Shown one piece after another: positions 13,410 to 52,864 of a stretch of DNA of 64,000 nt. The stretch lies in IMG/VR virus record IMGVR_UViG_3300045988_112739. One strand, written 5' to 3'. The number at the start of each line of letters is the position of its first letter. Position 1 is the stretch's first letter. The DNA is from a virus. The translations under genes and the position numbers were made by a program. Under the pieces are notes generated by a model, which worked only from the letters and a program-made list of their open reading frames with translations, did no database searches and was not told the DNA's origin.

Positions 13410-13681
13410 CTAAAAGGTTACTGACTATGTATTAAACATAGCGGTCGAAGTTCTTCCAAAAGTGTCTTTACACTTGACCTCAACTCTATATATTTCTATA
13501 TAGTTCAGACTGTATTTTCATCTTTACAGATGTTATCCTCTGCGGTCGTTACGATGAGATTATAAATAATCTTTATCTCGGTATTGTCTACAGCATTATC
13601 TGTTTAGAGTTTCACCGATATAGGATAATTCTGATATCTAAAAGATATCCATATATTTCTATATGTTCGGGCATACATTTT
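13410..13681 (-). ncRNA. probable group I intron (compact, divergent core) in tape measure gene
   Basis: P1: exon CGGGU| pairs with GCCCG 10 nt into the insert (U.G at cleavage site); insert ends CCTTTTAG; all frames closed; hairpins CATATAGAAATATATG and CTATATAGAAATATATAG, TAGACAAT and ACATAGTC elements; excision restores one ORF. Confidence 0.6.
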
Positions 13682-14243
13682 ACCCGCTATTGCAGTCGCA
13701 ATTTGTGCCTGTTCTACGGTATCAAATTCATTCCATCTACGCCCAACATCATCTAGAACATCTTCAAGATTTCTAAATTCTGTTGCACTATTTCTAAGAG
13801 TAATATTATAACGTTTAAGAACCTTTTCGGAATCGTTAATAGCTTCTCCCTCGTCATCAATACTCTTACCAGCTTTTACATTCTGCAAACGAGAGAACAT
13901 TGACTTAAATGCCTGACCTACTGTTTCTGCTGACAATCTAGTGGTTTCACTTGCTGTAGTGAGCATACCCACCATTTTATCAAAGCTAACGCCAGCAGCA
14001 CTAGCAAATGAAGCAGAATACTGGAATGCAGTAGCAAGTTCTTCTGTACTTGTTGCCGCAATAAGGTCGGCATTAACAAGTTTATCTACTACTTCTGCCG
14101 CATCGTCTGCTTCTAATTTATATGAGTTTAAAATTGCAGTTAATTTTTCTGTAGCTTCGCTTGATTCCATTGCACCAAGCGTTGCCATCATAGTAGATGC
14201 TTTAAGTAATTTAGCAGTTTCCTCTGCTGTCTTACCCTGTCTC
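13682..14243 (-). CDS. tape measure protein, exon 2 (core of TP901-type tape-measure domain)
   Basis: RQGKTAEETAKLLKASTMMATLGAMESSEATEKLTAILNSY…AFQYSASFASAAGVSF…; track ORF 13604..14191 has an artificial start and a read-through tail (KMYARTYRN…). Confidence 0.85.
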
Positions 14244-14583
14244 CTGTTATATTAACTAGAGTTCGTCACACTCTAATCTTATAGTTTCCTATAAGCATAG
14301 ACTATATCTTCAATCTAAAAAAGATTGTCCCCCACTTCGATTTAAGGGGTTCTCACCCACGCCATATGACGATTGCGCCCTACTTCTATTGTCCACAAGG
14401 ACTTACGAATAGTCGTTGAACCTTTCTCCTAATAGGAGACTTGGTTGCGGATTGTCCAATATTGATACTTTTTACTATACCTTAATAATTAGTTAAGCCA
14501 TTATAATATTGCTATTATAATTTAGTATATCAATCTCTAAGGAGTTTCCCGCAGTTAAAGGGATTTATAATGACCTAATTAAA
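14244..14583 (-). ncRNA. group I self-splicing intron (IA2-like core) in tape measure gene
   Basis: Minus strand: TTAACTGCGGGAAACTCCTTAGAG, GGACAATCCGC, CAACGACTAT (P7) and GAAGATATAGTC (J8/7-P7', as in Tetrahymena AAGAUAUAGUC). P1 is GGCU|U with AGGUC; ends AATATAACAG. Splice gives …GSVEWL|RQGKTAEE…. Confidence 0.9.
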
Positions 14584-17390
14584 AGCCATTCAACAGACCC
14601 AGAACTCACAATTTCTGTTGTAGTTCCAAGTTCTTTTGCAAGTTCAGAATAACTAGCTAAAGTTTTCCTAACACTAGTATCAGTCTGATTAGTTACCATT
14701 TGTACTTCTGTCATGGTCTTATCGAATTCTTTAGTTTTTTCGATAACGTTTGACAAGCCTTGTCTCATTTCCATGAACAGTCTATTAAATATATTAAAAC
14801 TAAAAGCAACAGCCGCAGTACGTTGGAAACTTGCTTTTAATCTTTCTAACAGTGTCAGTTGCTTACTATTACTCTGATTACTACGAGTTACATTATCTGC
14901 CATTTTAGCATTGGCTTCCGCTACCATATTTGTATAAGTTGAAGTTTTAGCTAATGCATCATTGTCTTTAAGTAGTGCATTATACTGCGCTTGTAACCTA
15001 TCAACAACTGCTTGTTGCTGATTTACAGTAGCATCATTATATGCTCTTGCTTTATACTCTTGAAGTGTAGATTGTGCTTTCTTCAAATTAGTATAAGCAG
15101 TAATCATTTTATTAAGGGTTGCCAAATCACTTTCTTGCTTTGCTTTTATAGTATCGTCTTTTATAGTGGCGTTAGCTTCTGCTACTACGGTTCTTAACTT
15201 TTCATATTGTTCTCTTGTAATACCTAAAGTGGCATTGAAACTCTTCAAAGACATTTGTCCACTTGAAAAATCAATTAAATTTCCAAGTCCACTAGTGCCA
15301 ATTATAGCAGACATCTTATCTTGTACATTTTGATAAGCGGCAGTGTATATACCTTTGTCGCCCTTGCCAGCCTTATTAGTAAGTTTGCCTTGTTCTCTGC
15401 GTAATTCTACATATTCTTGCAAAGATTTAGTTGCTTTAGAATAAACTTCGTTTTCTTGCTTTTGACGTTGAATATCTTTTTCTTTACTATTTGCTACTCT
15501 CTGTAATGTCTGATTATATTCAATATAATTGTTTAGTAATTCTCTTACTCTGTTTGTTAATAACTGAGTGTTTTCAGCACTTCTTAATTCTGTATTATAT
15601 TCAGATAGTTTGGCTTGTGCGATTTTTTGATACTCTGTGGCTTCTTCTATATTTCCTTTTTGCATAGCAGAACGAGATTTTTGCCAAGCCTGATACCTTT
15701 CATTTTCTAATCTTGTTAATTTTGTCACTAAGTTTTGCTGTTGTACGTTTGTATCGCTAGACGTAATTCTATTATATGTATCTGTTGGTATGCGACCATT
15801 ATAAGATTCTATCTGAGTATTTACTTGATTAAGCCTGTTCTGTGTAGTTACAAATTTTTGACTACCCGTTGTCTGTCCAGAAAGTCTACTTTCTAATTTA
15901 GCCCTTTCTGATACTAAATTTGTAAGCTCCTGCTCTAATTGAATTTGTTCTCTTATAACGTTATCTTCGTTTGCTCTTGTTTGAATAGCCCGTTGAATGT
16001 TTTGATTACGTTCCTGTAATTGCCGATTAAGAAAAGAAATACTTTCTGGGTCTTCGGCGTTCCCGTAACCGCTAAAAATAGGGTCTCTACCGCCAGCCAC
16101 CCTACCAGCATTTAATGCGCTTTTCTGAATATTGTTTATTTCAAGCTGATATCTTATTTTGTTTTGTAAAAGATTATCTTCGTTGGCTTCTGCCTCGTAT
16201 AATTTTAATTTCAAATCATACTCTTCTGTGAGTAGTGTTTTATATCTTTCTACCTGGCTGACCTCATCCACATACGTTCTGCTCAAACTAGATGTCCCAC
16301 CACGGCTTAACATCATATCATTAAGTGCTTTAGGGTTTACATTTTGTGGCGTTTTCCCAAATTTATTTGTAATTGTCTGTATATCCTCAGGAGATAAAGT
16401 TATATTTGCACTTTCTCGTCCGCTTATTCTTAATCTAGCGTTTGCTTTTACTAAATTGCCTGTATCGTCAAATACGCCAGTAATCTGCCTAAACAAATTG
16501 CTATAGTTTTTTTTAAATTCGTCAAACCTTTTTCTTGCGTTGATAATTGCGGCATCCGCTTTTTGAGACGCATCTGCTGATATTTTTAATCCCTCTGCTG
16601 TATTTCTATTAAATTCAGACAATTTGGCTCTAGGGTCTTTACTTGCTATAGAGGAATTGTCACTTTCCCCATTATTGCCGCCGCCAGACGGTGAATTTGT
16701 AGATGGATTGCCAGCGTTTTGAGCCGCACCACTTAAAGCATTAGCCGCGTTGCTAACCGCTTGTGCCGCAGTATTTAATGTGGTAGAAGCCCCACTTATA
16801 CTTTGGGAAGTGTTTCCTAAATTAGCATTAGCTGTACCTAAAGCAGAAGCACTATTACCTATATTAGTAGCACTAGTATTTAAACTAGAAGAAGCAGAAT
16901 TAAGGTTCTGAACAGTGGTGTTAAGATTATCAACAGTCTGCATTAATGTTTTATTTAGAGCGTCTGCGTTGGTTGATGTACTCTTCTTATCAGCAGGAGT
17001 TGTTTTTGTCTTTTGAGCTGTAATTACTTTTTCCACTTCTTTAGTAATTGTGGCTAGGTCAGAAGACTTATATCCTGTGCCGCCTATCGTAGCTCTTCCA
17101 GCTTTTGTGTTATAAGTAAACTTTAGACTTTGGTCTGTAATCTGCCTATTGATATCCGTAACGAATTCTGCAAAGTTCTGATAGTCTTTCTTAGATTGTT
17201 CAATCGCCTTTTGTATTGGTTCTCTAAACAGACTTTCTCCTATATTTTTAGTTCCAGAATATTTATTTAAAGCATCAAAAAGCTTCATAATATCATTAGG
17301 AAACTTTGATACTAAATTCTGAAATTGCTGTTCAAATGTACTTGTATCTAATCCTAATTGAACCTTGGCAATTTCTATTTTTTCTGCCAT
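14584..17390 (-). CDS. tape measure protein, exon 1
   Basis: 935 codons of coiled coil plus Ser/Asn/Ala-rich repeats ending …ELAKELGTTTEIVSSGSVEWL, the start of the conserved tape-measure domain. Track tail LIRSL is intron read-through. Confidence 0.8.
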
Positions 17391-17406
17391 ATACTATCTC
17401 ACCACC

Positions 17407-18150: not shown

Positions 18151-18154
18151 AAAA

Positions 18155-18778: not shown

Positions 18779-18793
18779 ATTAATTCCCTTTCA

Positions 18794-19831
18794 TTACAAA
18801 TCGCCAAGTTGACTTTGCTTAACTTCTTTAATTCCGTTTTCATCAAAATAATCAGCAAAACTATCCATAGCTTCGTTATCATCGTAAATCGAAATCATCG
18901 CACCGCCACTAGCTTTATTCCAACCTATAAGTTCAATTATTACAGGGTCAGGCAGTTTTTTAGCCCTTAACTGAGAAATTAAGAAGTGTCTAAGGCTATG
19001 GAAATAGAAATCGCAACCCAGTACACTCTCAATTGTTCTAGCCCAGACACTAGCAGTGCTAATTTGTGCCTGACGATAACCCTCTGGGGTTCTGGAAACA
19101 AACAGCCACTCGCTATCTATGCCTAACCGCTTACGCTCTTCCATCCATAAATCATAATATCTCTTAAACTGTTGTATAAAAACATATTTGTACAATAGTT
19201 TGCCACGACTACCTCTACCCTTAGTGGTTATTTTCTCTGGCGTTTTATATAGACAACCAAAAACAATATTGTCATCTGTGAACCAATTAGCCTTAAACCT
19301 TAATAACTCTGCTTTTCTAGCGCCACTAGCACAAGCCAAAGCCATAAAGCAAGCAGCTTGATATTTGCCAAGCTCAACTAATTTTTCAAGACAAGTATCT
19401 ACTTGCTCTTGTGTTAATACGGTCTTTTCTCTTACTGGTTCAATAGCCACCGTTTCTATCTTCTTGACATTATTACGATATCCCTCGTAATCTTCGTCTA
19501 ATATATTTTCTATGAAATTACTAAACGAACTTATAATTGCTCTGACTGTTTTTAACCTATTAGGAGAGGCATCAAGCTCGTTTGTCATATAACTAAAGAA
19601 GCGAACAAACTCTCTCTTCTTAATATCTACAAACACTTTGTTTGCATTGTGTTCTACGTTCCAACAGAAAAACAATTTAAGCACCGCTGTATACTGATAA
19701 ACAGTTTGTGCAGATTTATCAGTACTTATCTTATACTCCCTAAACTCATTCAGCAAATCTTTGTTTTCTTGGTCTACTTGCGCCCAAAGTTCTTCTGAAA
19801 AAGTGGAAGTTCTTTTTGTAGTTCTACTCAT
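18794..19831 (-). CDS. tyrosine recombinase / integrase
   Basis: C-terminal catalytic motifs ACASGARKAELLR, HSLRHFLISQL, GGAMISIYDD (Arg-His-Arg-Tyr pattern). Confidence 0.75.
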   Translation of the reverse strand: MSRTTKRTSTFSEELWAQVDQENKDLLNEFREYKISTDKSAQTVYQYTAVLKLFFCWNVEHNANKVFVDIKKREFVRFFSYMTNELDASPNRLKTVRAIISSFSNFIENILDEDYEGYRNNVKKIETVAIEPVREKTVLTQEQVDTCLEKLVELGKYQAACFMALACASGARKAELLRFKANWFTDDNIVFGCLYKTPEKITTKGRGSRGKLLYKYVFIQQFKRYYDLWMEERKRLGIDSEWLFVSRTPEGYRQAQISTASVWARTIESVLGCDFYFHSLRHFLISQLRAKKLPDPVIIELIGWNKASGGAMISIYDDNEAMDSFADYFDENGIKEVKQSQLGDL

Positions 19832-22101: not shown

Positions 22102-22758
22102 TCAGGTTGTCTCGTCCTCAGTATATACCTTGAAGGTATAAAGAGTTCTGTCAAGACAGCCCTTAACAAATTCAAGACCAAGGTTCTGTACAACAGGCTC
22201 ACCATCAGCAGAAACGTCAAAGTTCCAGTTACCGTCAACCTGTGCCTGACCCTCAATCTCGCAAGGGAATAACTCACCAGTACATACGTCCTTTGCAATA
22301 CCATAAGCGGTAGCAAGAACAACCGGAGGAATACCGTCAGAGTTTACGGTGATAGTCTGTGCATTAGTATCAGACTTGAAGCTATATGCACAAGCAATCA
22401 TGTCTCCAGCGGTGGGAGCATCTGTGCCAAAAGTAATCTCCTTAGTACCAGAGTCATAAGAGAAAGTCTCTGTTCCAGTAGCAGTAGCAGCTTGTTTATA
22501 AGTCTTAGAATAAGTGCCATCAGCACCTACAATATAAACAAATTTGATTTCGCTACCAGCAGTACCAGTAGCAGTAAACTTAGTCTTGTACTTACCATCA
22601 CTACCTGCCTCAATTACATCATAATATGTAATAGGGGTAGAACCAGTAACAACCTCAGTACCATTCTGAATAGCCAGTACCTCAGTATTAAATGTAGCAA
22701 CAGTTACATTCATAGTGGCTCTACGAGAGTGTGAGAAGCCACCGCCGATATATACGTC
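22102..22758 (-). CDS. major tail (tube) protein-like, exon 3
   Basis: Frame stays open upstream of track ATG: DVYIGGGFSHSRRATMNVTVATFNTEVLAIQNG…; GC-richer codons, followed by stem-loop. Exact 5' boundary (22757-22758) is uncertain. Confidence 0.55.
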   Translation of the reverse strand, partial: DVYIGGGFSHSRRATMNVTVATFNTEVLAIQNGTEVVTGSTPITYYDVIEAGSDGKYKTKFTATGTAGSEIKFVYIVGADGTYSKTYKQAATATGTETFSYDSGTKEITFGTDAPTAGDMIACAYSFKSDTNAQTITVNSDGIPPVVLATAYGIAKDVCTGELFPCEIEGQAQVDGNWNFDVSADGEPVVQNLGLEFVKGCLDRTLYTFKVYTEDETT

Positions 22759-23105
22759 CTTGGTATTTATATGTATTCGCTAAATACATACCATACAACA
22801 AATGTATGCTCATGCTTTCACATGAGAGTAGGTCATATCACAGACTTATTAAAAGTCTTTCCCCATTTCACAGTCGCTTGACTGTTACGCACCGCCGTGC
22901 TGACCGTCGAACCTTACTTGAATAATTTATTCAAGTCTTGGCGGCTGATTGTCCATTATTACAGTACTTAGGCTTGCACCATATACTATCCACATTATTC
23001 TTTCTACTTTCGTCACATTCACGCTTGTTAATTAAAACTACGTTGTAGTTAATGTGGCTCTTAGGAGTTTCCAGCCATTAAAGGAATTTTTCGATACTTT
23101 TCACA
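22759..23105 (-). ncRNA. group I intron B in tail tube gene
   Basis: Minus strand: AAATTCCTTTAATGGCTGGAAACTCCTAAGAG, GGACAATCAGCC, TTCGACGGTCA (P7) with GTGATATGACC (J8/7-P7'), long P9 hairpins, ends …ATATAAATACCAAG(G). 5' splice site is not canonical (no U.G found), so 5' boundary is +/- a few nt. Confidence 0.7.
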
Positions 23106-23117
23106 AAGTAAAGGGAA
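23106..23117 (-). CDS. tail tube gene, putative micro-exon (about 12-13 nt, TTCCCTTTACTT)
   Basis: Left between the homology-defined 3' end of intron A (…AATATAACG) and the start of intron B; 12 nt keeps frame (…VYPTG-FPLL-DVYIGGG…). Confidence 0.4.
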
Positions 23118-23505
23118 CGTTATATTATTCCTGCACCCAATATCTTCCAATAGGTCGTTAATCTATTGCGTTTTTAAAACAGCTCTATATTTCTATAGAC
23201 GTTGAGACTATATCTTCATACATTTTATGTATGCACTCCATTTCGATTTAAAGGGTTCTCACCTACGCACTTGCGCCCTACTCTTATTGCAATTAACCCA
23301 TTGCTAAAAAAGATAGTCGTTGAACCTTTCTCCTAATAGGAGACTTGGTTGCGGATTATCCAATACCAATACTTATTACCATACCTTAGTAGTTAATTAA
23401 GCCATTACTATATTACTATAATAACTTGGTATATTGGTCTCTAAGGAGTTTCCCGCAATTAAAAGTGTTTTCAAATACCAATCAGTATTTGGAGCAGTAT
23501 TATTT
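23118..23505 (-). ncRNA. group I intron A in tail tube gene (paralogue of tape-measure intron 14244-14583)
   Basis: TTAATTGCGGGAAACTCCTTAGAG, GATAATCCGC, GAAGATATAGTC. A 45-nt block (23313-23357) is identical to 14409-14453. P1 is GGGU| with GCUC; ends GAATAATATAACG. Confidence 0.9.
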
Positions 23506-23655
23506 ACCCGTGGGATATACCATTTCCATTGTATTTTCAAGAGAAGTTGTCTTACAGTTAGTAAGATATGCAATAATGCTCTTGTCAACAGGCTTTCTTA
23601 AAAGAATCTCAAATGCCTGCTGCATAGAGAACTGTTTAGGTGTAGCTAAAGCCAT
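23506..23655 (-). CDS. major tail (tube) protein-like, exon 1 (50 codons)
   Basis: GGAG RBS, ATG 23655; MALATPKQFSMQQAFEILLRKPVDKSIIAYLTNCKTTSLENTMEMVYPTG then stop 2 codons into the intron. Confidence 0.65.
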
Positions 23656-26438: not shown

Positions 26439-26752
26439 ATGTTTCTCCCTTTCTTAACAGCATCAATGCAATAGAATATATTAGACTTCATTTCTTTATG
26501 ATTGATTGTTGATAAATTTTCATTTATCCCGTTTAGTGTACTCACAAGAGAAATGAAGTTTTCAGCTTCTATTAAGTCATTAAACCCTTGAAATTCAAGA
26601 ATTAAATGCTCAATATATGTAGATAACTGCTCATAGTTATCTGTAGACTTTTCATATATTTTTAAGCATGCGAATATTTTTCCAATAATTTTATTAAAAT
26701 AACTATCTATTTCTTCTTCGCTCAAATTTTTAAAATAATCCTTACAAACCAT
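26435..26752 (-). CDS. hypothetical protein
   Basis: Start moved to ATG 26752 (MVCKDYFKNL…), which overlaps the stop of the spliced upstream gene (ATGGTTTGTAA). Confidence 0.5.
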   Translation of the reverse strand: MVCKDYFKNLSEEEIDSYFNKIIGKIFACLKIYEKSTDNYEQLSTYIEHLILEFQGFNDLIEAENFISLVSTLNGINENLSTINHKEMKSNIFYCIDAVKKGRNI

Positions 26753-26898
26753 AGTCACCCACCGCCCACTGTTTGAAATTAGTGTTTGCGAGACCATAAT
26801 CTGTCATATCCTGAGAAGCTATTTCTCTTAGCTTATCTGCATATTCTCTTTTCTCTTTAAGGTTTTTCTCTTCGGAATAATGCTTAAACTTTTCATTA
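26742..26898 (-). CDS. head-tail region protein, exon 2
   Basis: …NEKFKHYSEEKNLKEKREYADKLREIASQDMTDYGLANTNFKQWAVGDYGL*; only open frame downstream of the intron. Exon lengths 347+157=504 nt keep frame. Confidence 0.65.
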
Positions 26899-27189
26899 CT
26901 TTTATATTTAGCTTATCATATAAAAGACCGTTTGGTTTTCTCATAATTTCTTATGAGCATAGACTATATCTTTACCCTGTTACGGGTATTCCCCACTTCG
27001 GAACGCTTGTTCCTAACGGTATCTCAACCGATAGTCGTTGAGGGTTTTCCTTTTCGGAACTTCCCTGCTGATTGTCCAATCTTATAACTTTTCAAACATT
27101 TACATATAAGCGTATTTCATCTTTCTGCTTTAGTATATAAGCTCTAAGGAGTTTCCAGCATTTCAAGGAATTTATGTATAAACTTCCGT
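26899..27189 (-). ncRNA. group I intron in head-tail region gene
   Basis: AAATTCCTTGAAATGCTGGAAACTCCTTAGAG, GGACAATCAGC, CAACGACTAT (P7), AAAGATATAGTC (J8/7-P7'). P1 is UGUAUAAU| with GUUUAUACA; ends AAATATAAAAG. Confidence 0.85.
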
Positions 27190-27536
27190 ATTATACAAGA
27201 CTTTAAACAACGTTGTGTTCTCAAATCATTATCGTTAAGATTTAATTCCATTTGTACAATATCATTGATATTGTATTCTACCCAAGAAATAACCATAAGT
27301 TCAGAGAGAATATTCTTCTCTTTAATACTAAGAGTAAAATTAAACTCTTTTGAGGTAGTATCTACATCTTCTATATTAGGACAATTATGGAATTTGGCTA
27401 TAGCCTTTATAAGAAATGTCTCTAGTAAATCTTCACCAAGTTCAAAATTTTCCTTAAATAAATTCTTTAAGTGATAATCCTGTATAGAGTTTAAAAATAT
27501 GTGATAAATCTCACTAAATTCTGTATTAGCACTCAC
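27190..27536 (-). CDS. head-tail region protein, exon 1
   Basis: Track ORF 27144..27536; tail RKFIHKFLEMLETP is intron read-through. Confidence 0.65.
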
Positions 27537-35654: not shown

Positions 35655-36938
35655 TTAATATGACATTATATAACTCAACCAGTCAAGTTGTTGCGGTTGA
35701 ACCAAAGCATCTTCTAATGATTTAGCATAATCCAATCCGTACACTAAGCTCATTACTCTATCCTTACGTCTGCCTGATTTTTCTTTGGCGGAAATATATC
35801 CGCTAACAACTACTCTTTCAAGGTTTACCGCTTCATTAACAAAAGCGGTTGTTTGAACATAAGGATTTAAAATTCTTCTTCTCAAATCCTGGTCTTCAAT
35901 CTTGTAGAATTGATATGTTTTATTAAGATAATCCATAGCATCCTGAGAATCTACCAAGAATGATATTTTATTTGTGTCTATGATATCTCTGGAATGAACA
36001 AGCATTCTACTCTTGTCCTTCGCACTAGTACTAACACTATAAACAACAGGAACAGCGTTAGGACTTATGACTCTGTTAGACTTAACTTCATCATAATTCA
36101 TCGCTGTCCATGCAGGATAGGTAACATCTCTGCCCTCATCATATGTTTCTGTAGTGCAAATATCGAGTACGCCTTGACCTACACCCTGTCCATCAACAAC
36201 AGCATAGTCACAATCAAATTCGTAAAATAATTGTTTTAGTCGTTTAGCCTGTATAAGAGAGTTTTGTCCATGACAGCTTTCGGCATAAGACAATATACGT
36301 TTATACCCACCACTATCAGGAATTAATCTCATTATCCAAAATGCAGTATTATCGTTTGCTTTGCTTTCTACAAGGGCTATATCCATACAAAGAAGTCTAA
36401 TTTCGTTAGGCAATTTTTCTTGCCAATACGGGAATTTGGTTTTGTTATCTTTGTATGTAATATATTCTTCATCACTCATACAAACCATTGCCCTGACGTT
36501 TTCTCTACGTTTTTCGAGTTCTCTGTATTTATAGAAAGCGTTATTATTATTTCTTTCAGGTAAACATAAATATTCGGCACATAGAATGTCTCTGGACTCA
36601 GGGTTATCTTTAAAAGATTGTTCAACAATATCTCTAGAAATATATCTATTCTTAACACCAAGTTGATATGGTAAAGCAACTGTCATATAAGACATATTGT
36701 CCTGCTCCATATTCTTTATATATTCTAAAAAGTATTGATAAGACCATTCGTCAGCACCTCTAATAGAACTTAGATATAGTTGCTTATTAGCTTCTTCCGG
36801 CAATTCCGACCTTTCTTTAGGAGACAAATCCATGTATGTAGGAGTTCTTATGCTCGTCAAGAAAGGAACAAATACTCTTTGTATAATTTCTTTATCAGTT
36901 CTAACAAACTCATCTACAATAAGAATATTGCATCGTGC
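35655..36938 (-). CDS. terL: terminase large subunit, exon 2 (Walker B + nuclease domain)
   Basis: Begins ARCNILIVDEFVRTDKE (Walker B hhhhDE). The track start GTG 36941 is taken as the last 3 intron nt; an alternative 3' splice site lies 12 nt upstream. Confidence 0.75.
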   Translation of the reverse strand, partial: ARCNILIVDEFVRTDKEIIQRVFVPFLTSIRTPTYMDLSPKERSELPEEANKQLYLSSIRGADEWSYQYFLEYIKNMEQDNMSYMTVALPYQLGVKNRYISRDIVEQSFKDNPESRDILCAEYLCLPERNNNNAFYKYRELEKRRENVRAMVCMSDEEYITYKDNKTKFPYWQEKLPNEIRLLCMDIALVESKANDNTAFWIMRLIPDSGGYKRILSYAESCHGQNSLIQAKRLKQLFYEFDCDYAVVDGQGVGQGVLDICTTETYDEGRDVTYPAWTAMNYDEVKSNRVISPNAVPVVYSVSTSAKDKSRMLVHSRDIIDTNKISFLVDSQDAMDYLNKTYQFYKIEDQDLRRRILNPYVQTTAFVNEAVNLERVVVSGYISAKEKSGRRKDRVMSLVYGLDYAKSLEDALVQPQQLDWLSYIMSY

Positions 36939-37191
36939 CACATTGTTATCCTATGAGTTTTTTATCTCATAGTTCTTATAGTTTTATTCCTATAAGTTCG
37001 GCGTACCTTTTCATCTTTATAAGATGTCGGAGACTCTTGGAGTTATTATACTCTAACTAGTAGTTTCAAACTCTACGCTCTGTGCGTGTTAATCTTTTTA
37101 ATTATTAACTTCCGCTCTGATTAGCATTTCAGCCTTCCAGTTTTTTCTCCAATTTCAATTATATATCACTATATAATCAGGCGCATAATTC
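36939..37191 (-). ncRNA. probable group I intron in terL
   Basis: P1 is CUUGGU| with GCCUG, the same arrangement as intron 45525-45777. P2 hairpin is ATTATATAGTGATATATAAT. Candidate P7 is GAGCGTAGAG with GGTACGCC. P9 hairpin CTTATAGGAATAAAACTATAAG resembles CTTATAGGAAACTATAAG of intron 14244-14583. No ORF; excision restores …NENALG|ARCNILIVDEF. Confidence 0.55.
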
Positions 37192-37689
37192 ACCAAGCGC
37201 ATTTTCATTATACGGTACAGTAATAATTTCTGAACCATTATGAAACAATATTCTACTCTCGTTTTGACCTATCTTAACATCAGCAATTTCTGCCCTAAGA
37301 TTAGGGCTTGCTCTCATAAATTCTTGAACTTTTTTTATAAATCTTGAACTCTGCCCCTTAGTAGGTGCTACAACTACAACTTTTTGGTCTGGATATAATC
37401 CACATCGTTGTAGCGCAAAAAGCAATGAAATCGTTGACTTCGCGAGTCCGCGCGAAGCTACAAAAATAAAATTGGAATAAAAATTCATAAGGTATATTAT
37501 AACTTTCTGGAAATCATAAAGCCTTAATCCTAAATACTCCGTTATATATCTATGAGGATTGGCTCTCCAATAGGCAATCCAATCCTCGCAACTTTCATTA
37601 TATTTCTGCGTTTTAGTGAGATTTCTTTTGTCTTTTCTTCTTTTGATTATTATTTTTTTACTATCATTCTGTGTTTCCATCAGACTCAC
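37192..37689 (-). CDS. terL: terminase large subunit, exon 1 (Walker A ATPase part)
   Basis: …FVASRGLAKSTISLLFAL… (Walker A-like GxxKST), …VVVVAPTKGQ…; tail ELCA is intron read-through. Confidence 0.75.
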
Positions 37690-45005: not shown

Positions 45006-45524
45006 TTAGAAGTTGTTATATCCACAACCGCAGCCACAGCCGTCATTGTAAGTGTTGCAACCACAATAACCATTTACAGTGTAAGGATATACCTGTCTAC
45101 TACCAAGAAGCAGAGTAGAACCAGTGTAAGGGTCTGCAAGCTGACTAGGAGCAAGGAACTTGCTTGCCTTAACAAAGTCGCAAGTAGCCGCCTTAATCTT
45201 ATAATCAGTAAGGACATCGTTAGTGTTGAATCTAGTATCAACACAACCGAATTGCTGGTCGATAAGTTTGCCCTCATAGTAAGAACGCATCTGCTCAATC
45301 TCAAAGTTCTTAGCAATAGAAGTCTCGTCAATAGCTACTCTCTGTTCAAGAGCACAAATTCTATCAGAAACCCCCTGTGCATAGTTGAAGAACTCTTTCA
45401 TGTCAGAAATAGTATTGTTGTAATACTCTTTCTCAGTAACGTTAGCCGCATTAGTATTTCCACCAAGCAGACCATTACCATTAAGAGCACCACCAGCGAG
45501 AGCACCTAAAGCTGTACCAATAAT
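45006..45524 (-). CDS. Gly-rich/Cys-rich protein, exon 2
   Basis: Frame open upstream of track ATG to 45524: IIGTALGALAGGALNGNGLLGGNTNAANVTEKEYYNNTISDMKEFF…; C-terminus GYCGCNTYNDGCGCGCGYNNF. Confidence 0.65.
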   Translation of the reverse strand: MIGTALGALAGGALNGNGLLGGNTNAANVTEKEYYNNTISDMKEFFNYAQGVSDRICALEQRVAIDETSIAKNFEIEQMRSYYEGKLIDQQFGCVDTRFNTNDVLTDYKIKAATCDFVKASKFLAPSQLADPYTGSTLLLGSRQVYPYTVNGYCGCNTYNDGCGCGCGYNNF

Positions 45525-45777
45525 CGTTTATTCTTATATTACTATAAGCACTGACTATATCTTACCTAGAATACTAGGAAAATCTGTTTCGAACGTTGTG
45601 TCAATAAACGTCCTACTCTCCCGATGCGGAGATAGTCGATACATCGCCCATTACTAAAAGTAATGTATGACACGGTATTATCCTATAAGTTGGTACACTT
45701 AATATAGGACTTCACCGTTAGCATCTTAAAGATACCCCATTGACGAAATGGATAAGATTTAACAGGCATTATTACAT
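45525..45777 (-). ncRNA. group I intron in Gly/Cys-rich protein gene
   Basis: P1 is CUUGGU| with GCCUG. Core elements: GCTAACGGTGAAGTCC, GATAATACCGTG, ATCGACTATC (P7), AAGATATAGTC (J8/7-P7'). Ends AATATAAGAATAAACG. Confidence 0.8.
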
Positions 45778-45861
45778 ACCAAGAGTTAATCCTGCGTTAG
45801 CCTTACCGTTGGAAGCGGCATTGAACTCGCCCTCTGTTCCTGTTGCTGTTTTTACTAACAT
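45778..45861 (-). CDS. Gly-rich/Cys-rich protein, exon 1 (28 codons)
   Basis: GGTGA RBS, ATG 45861; MLVKTATGTEGEFNAASNGKANAGLTLG. Joins in frame to IIGTALGALAGG…. Confidence 0.6.
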
Positions 45862-45919
45862 ACTAATCACCATATAATTATATGATTATATAATGTTATT
45901 ATGTGGATAAATATATAAT

Positions 45920-46458: not shown

Positions 46459-46534
46459 TGGAGCTGATATCAGGAATCGAACCCGAAACATTCTGATTAC
46501 AAAACAGATACTCTGCCTATTGAGTTATATCAGC
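46459..46534 (-). tRNA. tRNA-Thr (anticodon UGU), CCA encoded
   Basis: Hand-folded cloverleaf. Acceptor GCTGATA/TATCAGC, D stem ACTC/GAGT, anticodon arm TCTGT-TTTGTAA-TCAGA (31-39 U-U mismatch), T arm TCGGG-TTCGATT-CCTGA. Confidence 0.85.
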
Positions 46535-46804: not shown

Positions 46805-46892
46805 TGGTGAGAGGAGTAGGAGTCGAACCTACGGTGTTTCTAACGTACTTGATTTACAGTCAAGCGTCTTCACCAACTAGACATATCCTCCC
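46805..46892 (-). tRNA. tRNA-Tyr (anticodon GUA), long variable arm, CCA encoded
   Basis: Acceptor GGGAGGA/TCCTCTC, anticodon arm CTTGA-CTGTAAA-TCAAG, variable arm TACGTTAGAAACACCGTA, T arm GTAGG-TTCGACT-CCTAC. Confidence 0.85.
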
Positions 46893-46922
46893 ATATCTAG
46901 GGGTGACTAGCACCCCTTATCT

Positions 46923-47192: not shown

Positions 47193-47411
47193 AATAAAAT
47201 TCCCTTTCATTCCAATTAAATTATTTATATAATAACTTTACAAGACACGATTTAGCACTTACCACACTGTGGTCATTGACTTCGGAGCAACCCTACTGCT
47301 TTTGGATAGTCATTATAACTGAAGTTATAGCAACTATCCATCTAAACAAATACTATTTATTTATCATCTTTAAAGCTTTGCAGTTAGCGTGTCTTTCGTT
47401 ATTACTCTTAT

Positions 47412-47449
47412 ATTATATCACAAAAACACTTGTTTGTCAAGTCATTTTT
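47412..47449 (-). promoter_or_regulatory. sigma-A type promoter (same family)
   Basis: AAAATGACTTGACAA…TGTGATATAAT: TTGACA 47440-47435, 17-nt spacer, TATAAT 47417-47412. Followed by a leader of about 210 nt before the HU gene. Confidence 0.7.
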
Positions 47450-47453
47450 GAAA

Positions 47454-47849
47454 TTATATTATATTTTTCTGAGAAACTTCATAATTATACTTTGCAGTGT
47501 CTTTAGCCGTCTTCGACTGTAATTCTGCAATCTTATAATTAGAATCAATGATACTCTTGTTACTCTCGTTTTCACTAATATAACTAAGAGCCATACTAGG
47601 CGTAATACCTACGTTTACTAAAGCAGTAATCATACCACAAACTCTTGACACATCATTAATCCCTCTCTGGAATTCCTTAGTATCAAACTTAGACTTAGAC
47701 ACCTCTTCTGCTGAAATACCAATAATCTCATCAACAAGATATGTCGGTTCATGTGTTGCATCGCAGCAATCTATCACATCAGAAATATCTACAGCCTGTG
47801 CATCAACTACTTCTTCATTTACAATTTTCTCGTCCATAACGTACCTCAC
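47454..47849 (-). CDS. hypothetical protein
   Basis: 131-aa ORF coupled to clpP-like gene. Confidence 0.5.
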   Translation of the reverse strand: MRYVMDEKIVNEEVVDAQAVDISDVIDCCDATHEPTYLVDEIIGISAEEVSKSKFDTKEFQRGINDVSRVCGMITALVNVGITPSMALSYISENESNKSIIDSNYKIAELQSKTAKDTAKYNYEVSQKNII

Positions 47850-48433
47850 ACAATCTTATCAGCGATTCCTAATTCAATAGCTTCTTTTGCTGAAAAATAT
47901 TTATCTATTTTTCTTTCCTGCCATGAAATTAAATCTTCTCTAGGAATAGACGTATGACTACAAATAAGGTCATATATCTCTTCTCTAATTACTTCGGTTT
48001 CCGCTAAGTCTTCTCTCATCTGCTGAGCCTTTCCATAAGTACCAGTAGATACATCATGTACCATATATCTAGCGTGTCTATATGCTCTACGTTCAGTTCC
48101 AGAAATAGCCAGCATAAACCCCATACTATAAGCCCTACCTATATTGGTAGTAATAATATGATATCCATTTTCTATCATAGATTCTATAAAAGAAATCAAA
48201 GTTAAACCATCTTCACAACAACCGCCATTGCTATTAATAAGAATTTCAATAGGCTTCTTTTGACCCAAGGTTTCATCAACCTCTATGAGCCTGTTAAGGT
48301 AATACATGGTTTCCATAACGCTACTTTCATTTACTGTATCATAAAAGAAAATCTTGCGTTGTTTCATAGCCATAGATAGCCTCATCTGAGAGATAAGACT
48401 ATTCTCTGGCTGATATATATAATCATCATTCAT
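47846..48433 (-). CDS. clpP: ClpP-family serine protease
   Basis: …ILINSNGG…GRAYSMGFMLAISG…RYMVHDVSTG… (Ser and His motifs of ClpP). Confidence 0.75.
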   Translation of the reverse strand: MNDDYIYQPENSLISQMRLSMAMKQRKIFFYDTVNESSVMETMYYLNRLIEVDETLGQKKPIEILINSNGGCCEDGLTLISFIESMIENGYHIITTNIGRAYSMGFMLAISGTERRAYRHARYMVHDVSTGTYGKAQQMREDLAETEVIREEIYDLICSHTSIPREDLISWQERKIDKYFSAKEAIELGIADKIV

Positions 48434-48445
48434 TCAACAATATCC

Positions 48446-49678
48446 TCAAAGTCTATCAGCGATTTCAGCTATCTTACTTCTCCAAACGTTCTGTAAATCG
48501 ACATATCCAAAAACTTCTTCCCCAGCAAAAGTTTCTACAACTCTTCTGAGACCGTTATTGCTTTCATATGTCTGACTATCAGTCTGCTTGAAGTCGCCCT
48601 CTATAAATACTTTTGCACCAGAACTTACTCTGGACAAACAAATTTTTATTAAATCTGTAGTGGTATTCTCTGCTTCTGTAATCCAAAGCATTTCGTTATC
48701 AGTAATCTCCATACCACGACAATCTGCCATAGGTACAAGTTTTATTTTACCGCTACTAATATAGTTGTCTACAATATATCTATCACCAAACTTAGTAATA
48801 AGAATATTGCCTATATTAGACTGCATAGCTTTTTCAACAACAGAACCAGTATAATAACCAAGTTCAGAAGCCCCCCTAACAGGACAAGGGTTAAACAGTA
48901 TTACTAACCTTTCATACTTTCCTGTCTCTATTAAGTGCATAGCTATCATAAGGCTAAGAAGGCTCTTACCACTACCAGCCTTACCCGTGATACAAGTAAT
49001 TGTATTATTCATAAGGCTATCAATAGCCATTCGTTGGTATACATCTTTGGCTTTCATCTTATCGCCAAAGAACATGGTTTTTATATTTTTACTTGCGACA
49101 GTAGAATATTTTTCTCCATCCCACTTAACCATATCACAATAATCTCCGTTGGAGTTATTTATAATAAGATATTGGTTAGCAAGACAACCAAAAATATTCT
49201 CGTTAGGATTTTCATATATAGAAGCCATTTCCTCGTCGGTAGCATTTACGGTGTCATAGCCTAAATACTTCTTTTCAGAAATACACTCCAATGTTGATAT
49301 ACCTAATATTTCTGCTTTAATCTTAACATTGAAATCATATGTCAAAATACTAGCAGAGTTTCTACAAGCACAGGTTACAATGATATCATCGTTCATTGTG
49401 TTTAAGCAATAAGTTTCCGGCGACTGTTTAATCTTCTCAGAAATATCTTTATTGAAATCAAACGTAATGTTCGATTTGTTTCTCTCTATTGCTTTAATAG
49501 CCTGTCTTGCCTGCCTAGCTTTAGAATAATCTTTATTAGTTTTGAGATTATCAAGTTCCTCAATAGTAGCAATATTGAATATAACCTGATAATTTTCTTT
49601 CAGTAGATTGTCAATAACACTGTTATCATTCATAACAGCACAGGTATCTACTACAACTTTCCGCTTGTTATCGTCCAT
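48446..49678 (-). CDS. PIN-domain + PhoH-like ATPase (YlaK-type)
   Basis: N-terminal VVVDTCAVMND (PIN acidic motif); Walker A ITGKAGSGKS; PhoH-like C-terminal region. Confidence 0.75.
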   Translation of the reverse strand: MDDNKRKVVVDTCAVMNDNSVIDNLLKENYQVIFNIATIEELDNLKTNKDYSKARQARQAIKAIERNKSNITFDFNKDISEKIKQSPETYCLNTMNDDIIVTCACRNSASILTYDFNVKIKAEILGISTLECISEKKYLGYDTVNATDEEMASIYENPNENIFGCLANQYLIINNSNGDYCDMVKWDGEKYSTVASKNIKTMFFGDKMKAKDVYQRMAIDSLMNNTITCITGKAGSGKSLLSLMIAMHLIETGKYERLVILFNPCPVRGASELGYYTGSVVEKAMQSNIGNILITKFGDRYIVDNYISSGKIKLVPMADCRGMEITDNEMLWITEAENTTTDLIKICLSRVSSGAKVFIEGDFKQTDSQTYESNNGLRRVVETFAGEEVFGYVDLQNVWRSKIAEIADRL

Positions 49679-49695
49679 GATTTCTCCTCTCTGGA

Positions 49696-49869
49696 TTACT
49701 TAGTTAATCCAAGAAATATAAGGATAGGTCTACTTTCTACGACATAATATTTCTTTCTGTCGGACTTCTTCTTGGCAGAAGTAATACGATAGTTCTTATC
49801 GCTCTTGCCGTCCTTAATAAGCTTTGCCTTTCTCAGTCTTTCGAAATCATCGCGGTTTACGTTAATCAT
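49696..49869 (-). CDS. small basic protein
   Basis: GAGGAA RBS before ATG 49869 (MINVNRDDFERLRKAKL…). Track start 49932 lacks an RBS. Confidence 0.45.
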   Translation of the reverse strand: MINVNRDDFERLRKAKLIKDGKSDKNYRITSAKKKSDRKKYYVVESRPILIFLGLTK

Positions 49870-50016
49870 GTATAAATTCCTCACAATTTTAAAATTTTGT
49901 TGAACTGGAAATTTTCTATCTTTCCTTTTCATTATATATTTTGGGGGCTACAAGCTTAGAAATCTTATATAAATATTGGTATTACAATCAATCTCTATTT
50001 TATAGCCCTCTAAATA

Positions 50017-50718
50017 TCACTTACAACTAGCACAGAATTTCTGACTATTACTCTTCTTGGGAACTACCAATCCACATTTTTGACAGGTCATATAACCATT
50101 AGGATTAAAATATCTAAAATACTGATAATTCAAATTTCTATAATCAGTAATCTTTAATGCTGTATCATCACCTTGTAATATCTTATCCGTAAACGAATAC
50201 ATCACCTTTGTAGCAACTGCACCTCTAGGCTTACTAACGCATAAAGTAAGCAATCCTAAATCATAAAGGCTATCTATCATAGAGTTGAAATCTGTTCCCG
50301 ACCAAGACAATCCTGCAAGCCTAAATACTTCTCGTTCGTTTATATAAAAACGATTATTGTCATTGAACTTAAACAAACACAGCATAACGAAAGCAAATAC
50401 TTGCAAGCTCTTAGTACTAAGAGATGAAATTGTTTTCAATTCATATTCACTAAAGGATAATTCTCTGCGTTTAAGTTCCGGATTGTTCTTAGCCATAGAA
50501 ATCATAATATTTATCTTGGCTTGCTTAACCTCGTAATTACCGCCACTATCAAGAATAATAAGTTTTCTACAGAGTTTAGAATAGACTTCCTTTTCATCTA
50601 AACCCTGAGAAAAGTATAATTTTGCAAGAACAATTCCTTTTTTTATTATGTTATAGGTTGTATCTATTTCTTGATTATTAAGTTCTAAAGCATAATTATA
50701 TTCATCAAAAACAATCAT
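50017..50718 (-). CDS. hypothetical protein with C-terminal zinc ribbon, translationally coupled to the polymerase gene
   Basis: ATGA overlap with polymerase stop; …CQKCGLVVPKKSNSQKFCASCK. Confidence 0.55.
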   Translation of the reverse strand: MIVFDEYNYALELNNQEIDTTYNIIKKGIVLAKLYFSQGLDEKEVYSKLCRKLIILDSGGNYEVKQAKINIMISMAKNNPELKRRELSFSEYELKTISSLSTKSLQVFAFVMLCLFKFNDNNRFYINEREVFRLAGLSWSGTDFNSMIDSLYDLGLLTLCVSKPRGAVATKVMYSFTDKILQGDDTALKITDYRNLNYQYFRYFNPNGYMTCQKCGLVVPKKSNSQKFCASCK

Positions 50719-51611
50719 ATTAAGTTCACTTCCTTTATCGAATATCTCTTGCCTAAGTAATCTACGCCGTTTTCATCAAATATAGGATACTCTACTTTAG
50801 TGGCTTTAGATTTTAAGTTTTCTACAACTATATCTCCAAATGTTTCCCAAATAAAAATCTTGGATTTTGTACTAAAATATCTATAATAAATATCTATAAC
50901 ATAATCGCAAGTCTTTCTGGCATCTGAACAAATAGATGTAATCTTGTTTTCGTATTCCTCGATAAGCGTTGTTATCTCTTGTGCATAACACTCTATGTCA
51001 TCTGTAGGAGTAAACATAATATCTGTTTCGACAGATTTTCTTTCTGCAATTATTCCAGCGTGACGTTTATGGAATTCTTTTATAATTGCTTTTAATTGAT
51101 TGTATAATTCTTTATCGTCTAAGTCATAATTACCAGACATAAGGACTTTATAATCAAAAGGTTGTCCTTGTTTTTTCCACTTGTTGTCAAATTCTGTATC
51201 TTCTACATACTCTGCAAGTATATTCATAATACATCTATTTTTAAGCAAAGGAGAAAATCTATTGTATTGATATAAGAACTTGCTTTCTTCGGAAGTCTTA
51301 TTTTTCTTTCGCATAAGTTCCGTAAGGTCACACTTAAACATAACTCTACAAAGCTGTTTGTAGTTTCTTTTACTAACATTGTAGTGTGTCATTATTTTAG
51401 GATAAACATATCCAAAGAAATATGGTTTTTTATCTGCGCAAATTCTATTGTTAAACGCAATTTCTTGATTTTTAAGAATTGCAGCTCTTTTTTCTTCTTC
51501 TGGCATATCTTCTGTTATTGAAACGTACTTTTGCTTTTTATTCCAGTATTTAGGAGGTGGCACAAAGACATCACCTTTGGCACTATCAATTGCCGTAAAA
51601 CTCCACACTTT
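50715..51611 (-). CDS. DPBB RNA polymerase (YonO/RdRP-like), exon 4
   Basis: Track ORF 50715..51614. In-frame 3' splice candidates after G at 51621, 51612 or 51603, so the 5' boundary is uncertain by about 9 nt either way. Confidence 0.7.
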   Translation of the reverse strand, partial: KVWSFTAIDSAKGDVFVPPPKYWNKKQKYVSITEDMPEEEKRAAILKNQEIAFNNRICADKKPYFFGYVYPKIMTHYNVSKRNYKQLCRVMFKCDLTELMRKKNKTSEESKFLYQYNRFSPLLKNRCIMNILAEYVEDTEFDNKWKKQGQPFDYKVLMSGNYDLDDKELYNQLKAIIKEFHKRHAGIIAERKSVETDIMFTPTDDIECYAQEITTLIEEYENKITSICSDARKTCDYVIDIYYRYFSTKSKIFIWETFGDIVVENLKSKATKVEYPIFDENGVDYLGKRYSIKEVNLI

Positions 51612-51937
51612 CATGTGGTACAGACTATATCTTCATCTTTCTCTATTGAGTTAAGATGTTCGGCACTTCCACTAAATGAATTTCACATTTAGTGTACCAA
51701 ATTCATAGGCATATCACTTGGACTTAGCCCGTGTTTTGTAGTCGTTTGACTTTCAAAATCGTTTCTGATTAAGCTTAGCACAGGATTGTCATATCAAAAA
51801 AAAGATTTAGACTTCCCTGTTAGCATGGCTATTATCTATCATTTCCTATAGATACTAAACGTTAGCCATACACCCTAGATTTCTAGGTTCACCGAATTTT
51901 TAGCTATATATTTCTATATAGCGGTAGCAACAAATCT
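51612..51937 (-). ncRNA. group I intron X3 in RNA polymerase gene
   Basis: P1 is GGUAGU| with GCUACC (6 bp incl. U.G). P2 is GCTATATAGAAATATATAGC. Core elements: 24-nt block GGTGAACCTAGAAATCTAGGGTGT, GCTAACAGGGAAG / GACAATCCTGTGC (P4), AAACGACTAC (P7), GAAGATATAGTC. Confidence 0.9.
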
Positions 51938-52213
51938 ACTACCTTGGTAAAAACGAAGTAAAGATATACGTTTTTTTATTTCTTTGTATTCATTACTATC
52001 TTCTGGATAATTAGCTAACATAGCTATAAGACTAGAAGCTATATTAGTAATAAATCCTATTTTAGTATTGAAACTTTTGGTGTCCATTGTGGCAAAGTTA
52101 TTTGCACTTATTCTTTGTTCTTTTGCTTTTTTCTTTTCGTAAGTTATTGTTGGCTGATTGTCAATTACTGCATTGACTACATACTTATTGTCTGTAACTA
52201 AAAATAAATCTCC
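51938..52213 (-). CDS. DPBB RNA polymerase, exon 3 (92 codons)
   Basis: GDLFLVTDNKYVVNAVIDNQPTITYEKKKAKEQRISANNFATMDTKSF…RISLLRFYQGS; only open frame between introns; length divisible by 3. Confidence 0.8.
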
Positions 52214-52559
52214 CTTTTATACCCTGACTTTCGCCATACTTTAACGCTGATTTAACAGCGGGAATAGACTATATCTTCATCTATTTTCATAGATGTGTGG
52301 CACTTCGATTTAAGAGGATTTCACTCACTGAGAATTTCACTCAGCCCTACTTCTATTGTTCTTTTTAGGATAGAACTAAAGAATAGTCGTTTAACGATTT
52401 TGTTCGCACAGGATTGTCATGTCATAAGATTTAGATTTCCCCTGTTAGCATATCTTCTATTTACCATTTCCTGTAAATCCTAACGTAAGACATACACCCT
52501 AGATTTCTAGGTTCACCACAATATCATATATCATTGCTGAATATATGAGACTAAATTCA
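52214..52559 (-). ncRNA. group I intron X2 in RNA polymerase gene
   Basis: Same 24-nt block (52494-52517). Core elements: GCTAACAGGGGAA / GACAATCCTGTGC, AAACGACTAT, GAAGATATAGTC, P9 hairpin CGCTGTTAAATCAGCG. Ends AGGGTATAAAAG. P1 is only GAU| with GUC. Confidence 0.9.
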
Positions 52560-52565
52560 ATCGTA
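52560..52565 (-). CDS. DPBB RNA polymerase, 6-nt micro-exon TACGAT (Tyr-Asp) or duplication scar
   Basis: Lies between the terminal G of X1 (52566) and the first nt of X2 (52559). In frame; yields D-A-D-Y-D-G-D. Confidence 0.55.
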
Positions 52566-52864
52566 CATTTATACCCCAATTTTCATTGTACTTTAACGCT
52601 GATTTAACAGCGGGATTTGACTATCTCTTTATCTGCTGTTGCAGATATGTGGCACTACGGAATAATGAATTTCACATTAAACCTCTTGAACTCTCGTTCG
52701 TTTAGTCGATACACCTTTCCTTTGTTAAGGACTTGGCACGATATCATCATGTATAATAAATTATATTTAGACTTTCATCGTTAGCCAGCTTGAAGCTGAC
52801 ACCCTAGATTTCTAGGTTCACCACATTCTTAACCAATATTACTATTGGCTCGGACTGACATTTT
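52566..52864 (-). ncRNA. group I intron X1 in RNA polymerase gene
   Basis: P1 is CGGAU| with GUCCG. P2 is CCAATAGTAATATTGG. Core elements: 24-nt block (52799-52822), TATCGACTAAAC (P7), AGAGATAGTC, P9 hairpin CGCTGTTAAATCAGCG. Ends GGGGTATAAATG. Confidence 0.9.

Follow-up and report, generated by a model that had tools for sequence, protein, structure and literature searches.

Intron-dense phage genomes have already been described from the gut. In crAss-like Zeta phages up to 14 group I introns occur per genome of 145-192 kb (PMC7886860), and the Jug phages carry a mean of 18.5 introns per genome of 360-402 kb, many of them ~200 nt long, with terL in 2-3 pieces (PMC12880540). Introns in tape-measure protein (TMP), terL and tail-tube genes are likewise published: in prophages of the Bacillus cereus group all three are interrupted, and the guides are adapted to different sites (PMC2504315). 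Among natural exons flanked by group I introns, the shortest found in the literature measure 23 nt (Twort orf142) and 34 nt (Coxiella), each of which is subject to skipping (PMC10136302). Here we analyze a 64,000-nt stretch of viral DNA (IMG/VR record IMGVR_UViG_3300045988_112739; the whole stretch is called the window below), in which ten inserts interrupt six genes of what is read as an SPβ-like phage. We consider it highly probable that all ten are phage-type (IA-like) group I introns without open reading frames (ORFs). An initial annotation of the window had named ten ORF-less group I introns in these six genes, which was borne out by the Rfam model RF00028, by covariation in the terL intron and by collinearity with homologues; its baseline of three to five introns for intron-rich phages is outdated by the Zeta (PMC7886860) and Jug phages (PMC12880540).

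Ten inserts with group I ribozyme features

All inserts are on the minus strand, and none leaves any of the three frames open, as stated initially. Two are located in the tape-measure gene (TMP1, TMP2), two in a YomU-type tail-tube gene (tube1, tube2), three in a YonO-type RNA polymerase (RNAP) gene (RNAP1 to RNAP3), and one each in terL, in a Gly/Cys-rich gene (Gly) and in the gene of a small virion-module protein, first called a head-tail gene (ht). The corrected intron lengths, 253-370 nt, sum to 3,199 nt, where ~3.1 kb had been given.

RF00028 matched eight of the ten inserts; Gly gave a weak match (E = 0.0025) and terL none. The matches to ht, TMP1 and tube1 exceeded the gathering score (83, 73.8 and 73.2 bits), and those to RNAP3, RNAP2, TMP2, RNAP1 and tube2 (46.1, 43.6, 38, 36.4 and 33.9 bits; E-values from 9e-9 to 4e-5) were below it, full-length and on the correct strand. 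On the gene strand, the core strings (A/G)AGATATAGTC and AACGACTA are nearly confined to the inserts, and the RF00028 alignment places the core strings at P5'/P4', J6/7-P7 and J8/7-P7', in agreement with the earlier motif assignments. In ht, TMP1 and tube1 the alignments show additional inserts of 34-73 nt between P7 and P3', which is the place of P7.1/P7.2. The two-core pattern AACGACTA-N95-120-GATATAGTC was found in at least 119 viral contig stretches. As had been proposed, every corrected intron ends in G (omega-G). A U at the 5' splice site that can pair with a G in P1 is present in nine of the ten, with P1 helices of 3-7 bp; tube2, already excepted initially, follows an A even after correction.

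The ten corrected junctions are all collinear with uninterrupted homologues at codon precision, and all six spliced ORFs are continuous, with products of 593 aa for terL and ~200 aa for the Gly/Cys-rich gene (the other lengths are listed in Table 1). The relatives used for this comparison (L001-L026) are loci from metagenome and viral collections, and P0153 is an uninterrupted homologue of the Gly/Cys-rich protein. The boundaries of the initial annotation were exact for TMP1 (checked against L021), terL (DNA of four intron-less alleles), Gly (P0153), and RNAP1 and RNAP2 (L001 and Bacillus phage BUCT082). Uninterrupted homologues showed that the other five were wrong, namely TMP2 at 13410-13681, tube1 at 23118-23505, tube2 at 22759-23105, ht at 26899-27189 and RNAP3 at 51612-51937. 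Excision at these positions did restore the reading frames, as claimed; the spurious residues left behind were VKVTEL (TMP), FPLL plus an N-to-D change (tube protein), 15 aa (head-tail protein) and KVWSFT (RNAP).

The TMP1 junction SSGSVEWL^RQGKTAEE (^ marks the splice junction) is collinear with the uninterrupted L021, and its P1, AAUGGCU/GGUCAUU, has U.G at the splice site. Pfam PF10145 gives one uninterrupted match (aa 916-1123) that spans the spliced region of the tape-measure protein. The 3' splice sites of TMP2 and RNAP3 were each shifted by 18 nt because L021 reads AISG^VHQRN and L001 reads RFYQGQ^AIDHAKG, respectively; their P1 helices are CGGGU/GCCCG and GGUAGU/GCUACC, and the TMP2 3' end GUAACAGAAUUG resembles the terminus of the terL family. 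For ht the boundaries follow from NLNDND^FKHYSEE, found in 11 of 11 aligned homologues; its P1 is AAUGAU/GUUGUU, and the helix first taken for P1 is really P2, as the Rfam alignment already implied. The Gly junction AGLTLG^IIGTALG is collinear with P0153, which is 97% identical, and the Gly intron contains the exact AAGATATAGTC core (J8/7-P7' string).

No endonuclease ORF is present in any of the ten inserts, as noted initially, and no HNH, GIY-YIG or LAGLIDADG motif was detected in any frame of the window. Neither the core motifs, nor blastn with the ten introns as queries, nor an nhmmer profile built from the terL family revealed further introns in the window. The only other non-coding gaps above 200 nt are 47210-47454, which is without RF00028 signal, and 54553-55222.

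Following established group I chemistry, the intron RNA would fold into a P3-P9 core, and the internal guide sequence would pair with the 5' exon to form P1, with U.G at the cleavage site. Exogenous guanosine would then cleave the 5' splice site, the terminal intron G would dock and the exons would be ligated. The outcome would be mRNAs that are codon-for-codon collinear with the uninterrupted homologues.

Several points weigh against this interpretation. The RF00028 score is under the gathering threshold for six inserts (the five listed above and Gly), and terL gave no match even when its 301-nt stretch was scanned alone at E up to 10. P1 is just 3 bp long in terL and RNAP2. The tube2 exon ends in A at the protein-defined 5' splice site (GGAA^UAAUAUAACGUUCC), the best P1 of this intron, GGAAU/GUUCC, puts the U.G wobble 1 nt inside the intron, and a U at position -1 occurs in no in-frame model. 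Finally, the self-splicing of the introns is a prediction from sequence.

Table 1. Positions of exons and introns in the six interrupted genes of the window, with the basis for each assignment.
Feature	Positions	Strand	Basis
Tape-measure exon 1	14584..17390	-	Spliced ORF 2682 aa
Intron TMP1, 340 nt, family A	14244..14583	-	RF00028 73.8 bits; initial boundaries kept
Tape-measure exon 2	13682..14243	-	Between TMP1 and TMP2
Intron TMP2, 290 nt, related to terL type	13392..13681	-	RF00028 38 bits, E = 2.6e-6
Tape-measure exon 3	8712..13391	-	Spliced ORF 2682 aa
YomU-type tail-tube exon 1, 50 codons, ends ...YPTG	23506..23655	-	Homologues carry Pfam YomU_Tube
Intron tube1, 368 nt, family A	23138..23505	-	RF00028 73.2 bits
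Tail-tube 10-nt micro-exon GGTGCAGGAA (codons G-A-G and first base of N)	23128..23137	-	L020/L021 DNA alignment
Intron tube2, 370 nt, sub-family with large P5 extension, after A	22758..23127	-	Boundaries from L020 and L021
Tail-tube exon 3	22102..22757	-	Spliced protein 271 aa
Small virion-module gene (phrog_3853) exon 1	27225..27536	-	Homologue alignment
Intron ht, 336 nt, family A	26889..27224	-	RF00028 83 bits
Virion-module gene exon 2	26742..26888	-	Spliced product 152 aa, length equal to homologues
terL exon 1	37192..37689	-	Homologue comparison
Intron terL, 253 nt, compact type	36939..37191	-	Intron-less alleles; covariation
terL exon 2, starts just before Walker B motif ILIVDE	35655..36938	-	Homologue comparison
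Gly/Cys-rich small protein exon 1	45778..45873	-	Homologue P0153 starts MVISMLVK
Intron Gly, 253 nt	45525..45777	-	RF00028 20.9 bits, full length, E = 0.0025 scanned alone (weak)
Gly/Cys-rich gene exon 2	45006..45524	-	P0153 alignment
RNAP exon 1, ends ...SDAD (first catalytic Asp)	52865..54553	-	PF05183 E = 4e-15; phrog_8308 E = 1e-106
Intron RNAP1, 299 nt	52566..52864	-	RF00028 36.4 bits, E = 7e-6
RNAP 6-nt micro-exon TACGAT (Tyr-Asp, second catalytic Asp)	52560..52565	-	L001 and BUCT082 alignment
Intron RNAP2, 346 nt	52214..52559	-	RF00028 43.6 bits, E = 5e-8
RNAP exon 3, starts GDLF (third catalytic Asp)	51938..52213	-	L001 and BUCT082
Intron RNAP3, 344 nt	51594..51937	-	RF00028 46.1 bits, E = 9e-9
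RNAP exon 4	50715..51593	-	Spliced protein 949 aa

A 10-nt exon and a non-U splice site in the tail-tube gene

The tube1 intron, with P1 GGGU/GCUC, has an ortholog in L020 that is 96.7% identical and ends ...GATATTG^GGTGCAGG. Both the intron-less L021 and the single-intron L020 read GGNGCNGGNAAYGTATAT (GAGNVY), and their alignment gives the micro-exon listed in Table 1 in place of the FPLL proposed at first. Of the micro-exon residues, G and N show conservation of 90% or more among 18 aligned homologues, and tube homologues read YPTG-G(A/R)GN-VYIGGGF. The predicted spliced protein includes ...YPTGGAGNVYIG... and is collinear with uninterrupted homologues of ~270 aa.

The RF00028 match to tube2 (33.9 bits, E = 4e-5) starts at 23136. 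Models of this intron were enumerated as all combinations of the upstream omega-G (23136-23138), the 5' splice site and the downstream omega-G (22758/22759), and the last base of the micro-exon is A in every in-frame model in which the tube1 splice site stays where L020 has it. The only all-canonical model of the gene was rejected: it yields VQEY for the conserved GAGN, needs a tube1 3' splice site unlike the one L020 must use, and is also disfavoured by the tube1 P10 pairing (GGU/ACU). 'Virtually all' group I introns follow U (PMC2504315), and the 5' splice site of tube2 after A is unexplained. A related intron in L026 (~146-175) has its 5' splice site after G or C, and a member of the same sub-family in L023 can be drawn canonically. 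In the window (23127-23100, minus strand), L026 and L023 alike, the inferred cleavage lies four bp from the base of P1.

The properties of tube2 may instead indicate that one or more inserts, chiefly this one, are decayed or splicing-defective, so that the genes are inactive or weakly expressed, as in a degenerating prophage, or that a trans-acting helper is needed. The non-U 5' splice site and the displaced wobble would fit such a state, and so would the lack of endonuclease ORFs in all ten introns, as expected late in the homing cycle, and the scores of several inserts under the RF00028 gathering threshold. We nevertheless regard it as unlikely: the six spliced ORFs are all intact and conserved, the tube architecture is repeated in several independent metagenome contigs with an identical capsid gene, and the non-U geometry shared by the related L026 intron suggests a tolerated property of the sub-family, not decay.

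A hot spot of intron insertion covers the N-terminal ~60 codons of the YomU-type tube gene, where the relatives together show five or more different sites (SGL^ENT, MEMV^YP, YPTG^GA, within the codon for N, and VYIG^GGF). Micro-exons between these sites measure 10, 21 and 25 nt (L023 200-2500; L025 1-500; L026 100-1140).

Intron polymorphism and origin

The intron content of the six genes differs among relatives. The number of terL introns is zero in L008, one in the window and three in L012. Missing in relatives are tube2 (L020), both tube introns and TMP2 (L021), RNAP1 and RNAP3 (L001) and Gly (P0153), and the TMP intron of L021 sits at a site other than the two of the window. HNH_3 ORFs were found in the P6 loop of homologous introns, in the tube gene of L023, L025 and L026 and at the RNAP2 site of L001, so that HNH-containing versions occur in relatives at the same or neighbouring sites. 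Rfam gave few matches in the relatives because endonuclease ORFs split the ribozymes there, and their introns were read by eye.

Recent spread of the ten introns within this genome, by reverse splicing or by a trans-acting endonuclease, had been proposed in the initial annotation. Intron sequence families are indeed present: the reported 45-nt block is shared without a mismatch by 14409-14453 and 23313-23357, all three RNAP inserts have the 24-nt block in identical form, and the hairpin TATAGAAATATA recurs in four copies, two in TMP2 and one each in tube1 and RNAP3. In addition, RNAP1 and RNAP2 each follow a GAU codon, the two codons being 6 nt apart; their guides are similar (GUCCG, GUC), and they share their 3' ends. 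However, intron paralogues within the genome are only 54-77% identical, whereas the tube1 orthologues of the window and L020 are 97% identical. As TMP1 shares slightly more identity with the L021 intron, located at another TMP site (77%), than with tube1 of the same genome (73.5%), a recent intragenomic burst is unsupported; moreover, HNH-bearing versions are found in relatives, and no endonuclease gene is detectable in the window. The 'HNH-like gene' that had been noted at 200 has no Pfam match and matches only phrog_5104, of unknown function. Recent spread within the genome is thus improbable for the set as a whole. The HNH-containing versions point to a shared pool of homing introns with endonuclease loss, and the ten introns probably derive from such a pool circulating among related phages, the endonuclease ORF having been lost or never gained and the guides having been adapted to each site. 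RNAP1 and RNAP2 alone resemble a local duplication into a similar site, because both follow GAU and their guides are similar, and reverse splicing is possible solely for this pair.

The ORF fragment at the start of the window (1-200, minus strand) encodes 66 aa, MGLITKEVEVSLSTNSIRYYRNLGYIIP...KCDKC, and runs off the window start.

A compact intron family in terL

Exactly at the terL site the insert is missing in L013, L015, L016 and L017, and homologous inserts are present in L012 and L018. Covariation was analyzed on six copies of the terL type, three at this site (window, L012, L018) and three at a Walker-A site (L012, L013, L015). RNAalifold showed compensatory changes in 24 of 37 pairs. 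When the P7 pseudoknot was added to the fold, all 189 of 189 cells were paired and 19 of 32 pairs had double-sided changes; none of 500 shuffles reached the observed value, and slid controls paired 26-42%. P7 covaries between GCGUA/UACGC and GCAUA/UAUGC, and P3, a covarying 7-bp helix in all six copies, forms a pseudoknot with it. The fold also contains P6, a covarying P7.1-like hairpin between P7 and P3', P8 and two P9 hairpins, in the helix order of group I introns: P3, P4-P6, P7, insert, P3', P8, P7', P9. Its P8-J8/7-P7'-P9 segment can be aligned to TMP2, which is itself recognised by RF00028. We conclude that the terL type is a compact group I intron family overlooked by the Rfam model.

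The missing RF00028 match, the small size of 253 nt, the short P1 and the lack of the AACGACTA and GATATAGTC strings would also be compatible with another compact structured RNA, either a new self-splicing class or a protein-dependent intron, to which TMP2 might belong as well. This is very unlikely in view of the group I helix order, the covariation of both pseudoknot strands and the alignable 3' half; furthermore, the insert follows U and ends in G at sites set by intron-less alleles, and phage subtypes are known to be under-represented in RF00028 (PMC11878797).

The close relative L012 (IMGVR_UViG_3300045988_131220), with a terL that is 98% identical (tblastn), has three terL introns (2680-3010 and 3855-4187 included): one at the site of the window, one of the terL type inside Walker A (ASRGLA^KST) and a 370-nt RF00028-positive one after ...PESRDI. 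The window has the first alone.

A 6-nt exon in the RNA polymerase gene

With the RNAP micro-exon in place the motif DYDGD is restored, and it can be aligned gap-free with DFDYD of the uninterrupted BUCT082 protein and with DADFD^GD of L001. In the arrangement GAU^intron^UACGAU^intron^GGAGAU the three aspartates of the DxDxD motif fall in three exons. The P1 of RNAP1 is CGGAU/GUCCG; L001 is contiguous at this site (SDADFD), and exactly at the RNAP2 site it carries an orthologous intron whose P6 contains an HNH ORF of 229 aa. No report of introns in YonO-type polymerases was found in the literature.

Exons as short as 6 and 10 nt can reach expression only through RNA splicing, and splicing across them would have to be ordered or cooperative. 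Skipping of the 6-nt exon (52560-52565) would give an in-frame RNAP, SDAD^GDLF, that still reads D-A-D-G-D (D-x-D-x-D). A more far-reaching proposal is that tandem ribozymes 6 nt (RNAP) or 10 nt (tube) apart may need to splice in a fixed order or cooperatively, that tube2 and its L026 relative may break the U.G rule, with cleavage set by the distance from the P1 base, and that the choice of splicing could tune the polymerase; as a whole this is speculative and rather unlikely. That the inserts stay in the RNA, the genes being truly split or read by translational bypassing, is scarcely credible: the PHROGs 'half-gene' families ending at the RNAP intron site would fit it but more likely reflect the annotation of interrupted genes, exons of 6 and 10 nt cannot be independent genes, inserts of 253-370 nt with ribozyme cores are far above known bypass gaps, and the split points lie inside the catalytic motif DxDxD and just ahead of Walker B.

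The families phrog_25339 and phrog_35857 include 'half' polymerases, one of them stopping at residue 563, which is exactly the first intron site, and the other beginning at 588. RNAP matches also come in several pieces in Clostridium phage c-st and in Enterocloster phages CB457P1/P2 and CB473P1/P2/P3. Deposited phages thus seem to have interrupted YonO-type genes whose pieces are annotated as proteins in their own right.

Phage identity and other features of the window

Megablast of 12 kb against a phage collection found no deposited phage close at the DNA level, and the phage was placed solely via searches at the protein level and Pfam matches of neighbouring genes. An identical capsid gene is present in metagenome contigs, and its neighbours match Pfam YonJ_N, YonG_N, YonD_N, YomX_C, YomW, YomV_2nd and YomU_Tube. 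By tblastn the RNAP matches yonO of SPβ-like Bacillus phages, Clostridium phage c-st and Enterocloster phages; the closest deposited record is MT835481 from human faeces, with an RNAP identity of 49%. Because of these Yon/Yom neighbours and yonO matches, the window is read as a portion of an SPβ-like tailed phage genome of low G+C. Its nearest relatives come from gut-type metagenomes, which points to a gut setting.

From 1 to ~54.5 kb the minus strand carries the genes; the strand switches at ~54.6-55.2 kb, and the GC skew changes sign at the divergent intergenic region at 54.6-55.2 kb. A TnpB / IS605 OrfB gene (Pfam OrfB_IS605, HTH_OrfB_IS605, Cas12f1-like_TNB) is located between virion genes at 32829-33932 on the minus strand; it is a variable insertion, present in the near-identical contigs L002, L003 and L005 and missing from L004 and L006. 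An IStron, with a group I ribozyme directly upstream of tnpB, was considered for this gene and rejected, as the upstream space is only 96 nt, RF00028 gives no signal there and the element lies between genes, not within one. A tyrosine recombinase gene (Phage_integrase and a SAM-like N-terminal domain; 18794-19831, minus strand) lies inside the tail module, flanked by the tube/chaperone genes and the tape-measure gene, and occupies the same position in L002, L003 and L021. Two tRNA genes on the minus strand, tRNA-Thr(UGU) and tRNA-Tyr(GUA) at 46459-46534 and 46805-46892, are within a 580-nt non-coding stretch. Accessory genes near RNAP (47846-49678, minus strand, and 57469-58515, plus strand) encode a ClpP-family protease, a PIN-PhoH fusion and an RlaP-like nucleotidyltransferase.

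Comparison with known intron-rich phages

The window extends intron-dense genomes from the Bacteroidota crAss-like and Jug phages to an SPβ-like lineage of low G+C. It adds the YonO-type single-subunit RNAP to the intron targets, with one catalytic aspartate per exon. The exons of 6 and 10 nt are unusually short, the shortest found reported between group I introns (compared with 23 and 34 nt), and would lend themselves well to studies of order and cooperativity in ribozyme splicing. Restoration of an ORF in frame, when used alone, misplaces splice sites, as it did for half of those in the initial annotation, and annotation pipelines fragment such genes. The micro-exons, the non-U splice site and the compact intron family overlooked by Rfam are of specialist interest.

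As in the Zeta and Jug phages, core genes are massively infested by group I introns; those are phages of Bacteroidota, often with endonuclease ORFs and inteins, whereas all introns are ORF-less here. With ten introns per 64-kb window, or ten per 39.5-kb span (one per 4 kb), the density is locally 2-3x that of the Zeta and Jug phages and the highest found reported, as a local and not a whole-genome figure. The B. cereus-group prophages (TMP-IVS1/2/3, term-IVS1/2, tail tube) share the gene targets and have similar introns at different sites with adapted P1, and most of their introns are also ORF-less (PMC2504315); they carry at most about three introns each, and neither an RNAP target nor micro-exons are reported there. 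The introns of T4 td, nrdB and nrdD and of SPβ bnrdE/bnrdF have in common with the present ones the IA-like core, a AAGAUAUAGUC-like J8/7-P7', an insertion at the place of P7.1/P7.2 and conserved catalytic sites as targets, but they usually carry homing endonuclease ORFs and are hosted by nucleotide-metabolism genes. Twort, with three IA2 introns in its tail-tube gene orf142 and further introns in nrdE, likewise has several small ORF-less IA-like introns in a tail-tube gene and a short exon between two similar introns, so that exon skipping is possible (PMC10136302, PMC11878797). Its short exon measures 23 nt, compared with 10 nt (tube) and 6 nt (RNAP) in the window, where ten introns are present within ~40 kb of an SPβ-like lineage.

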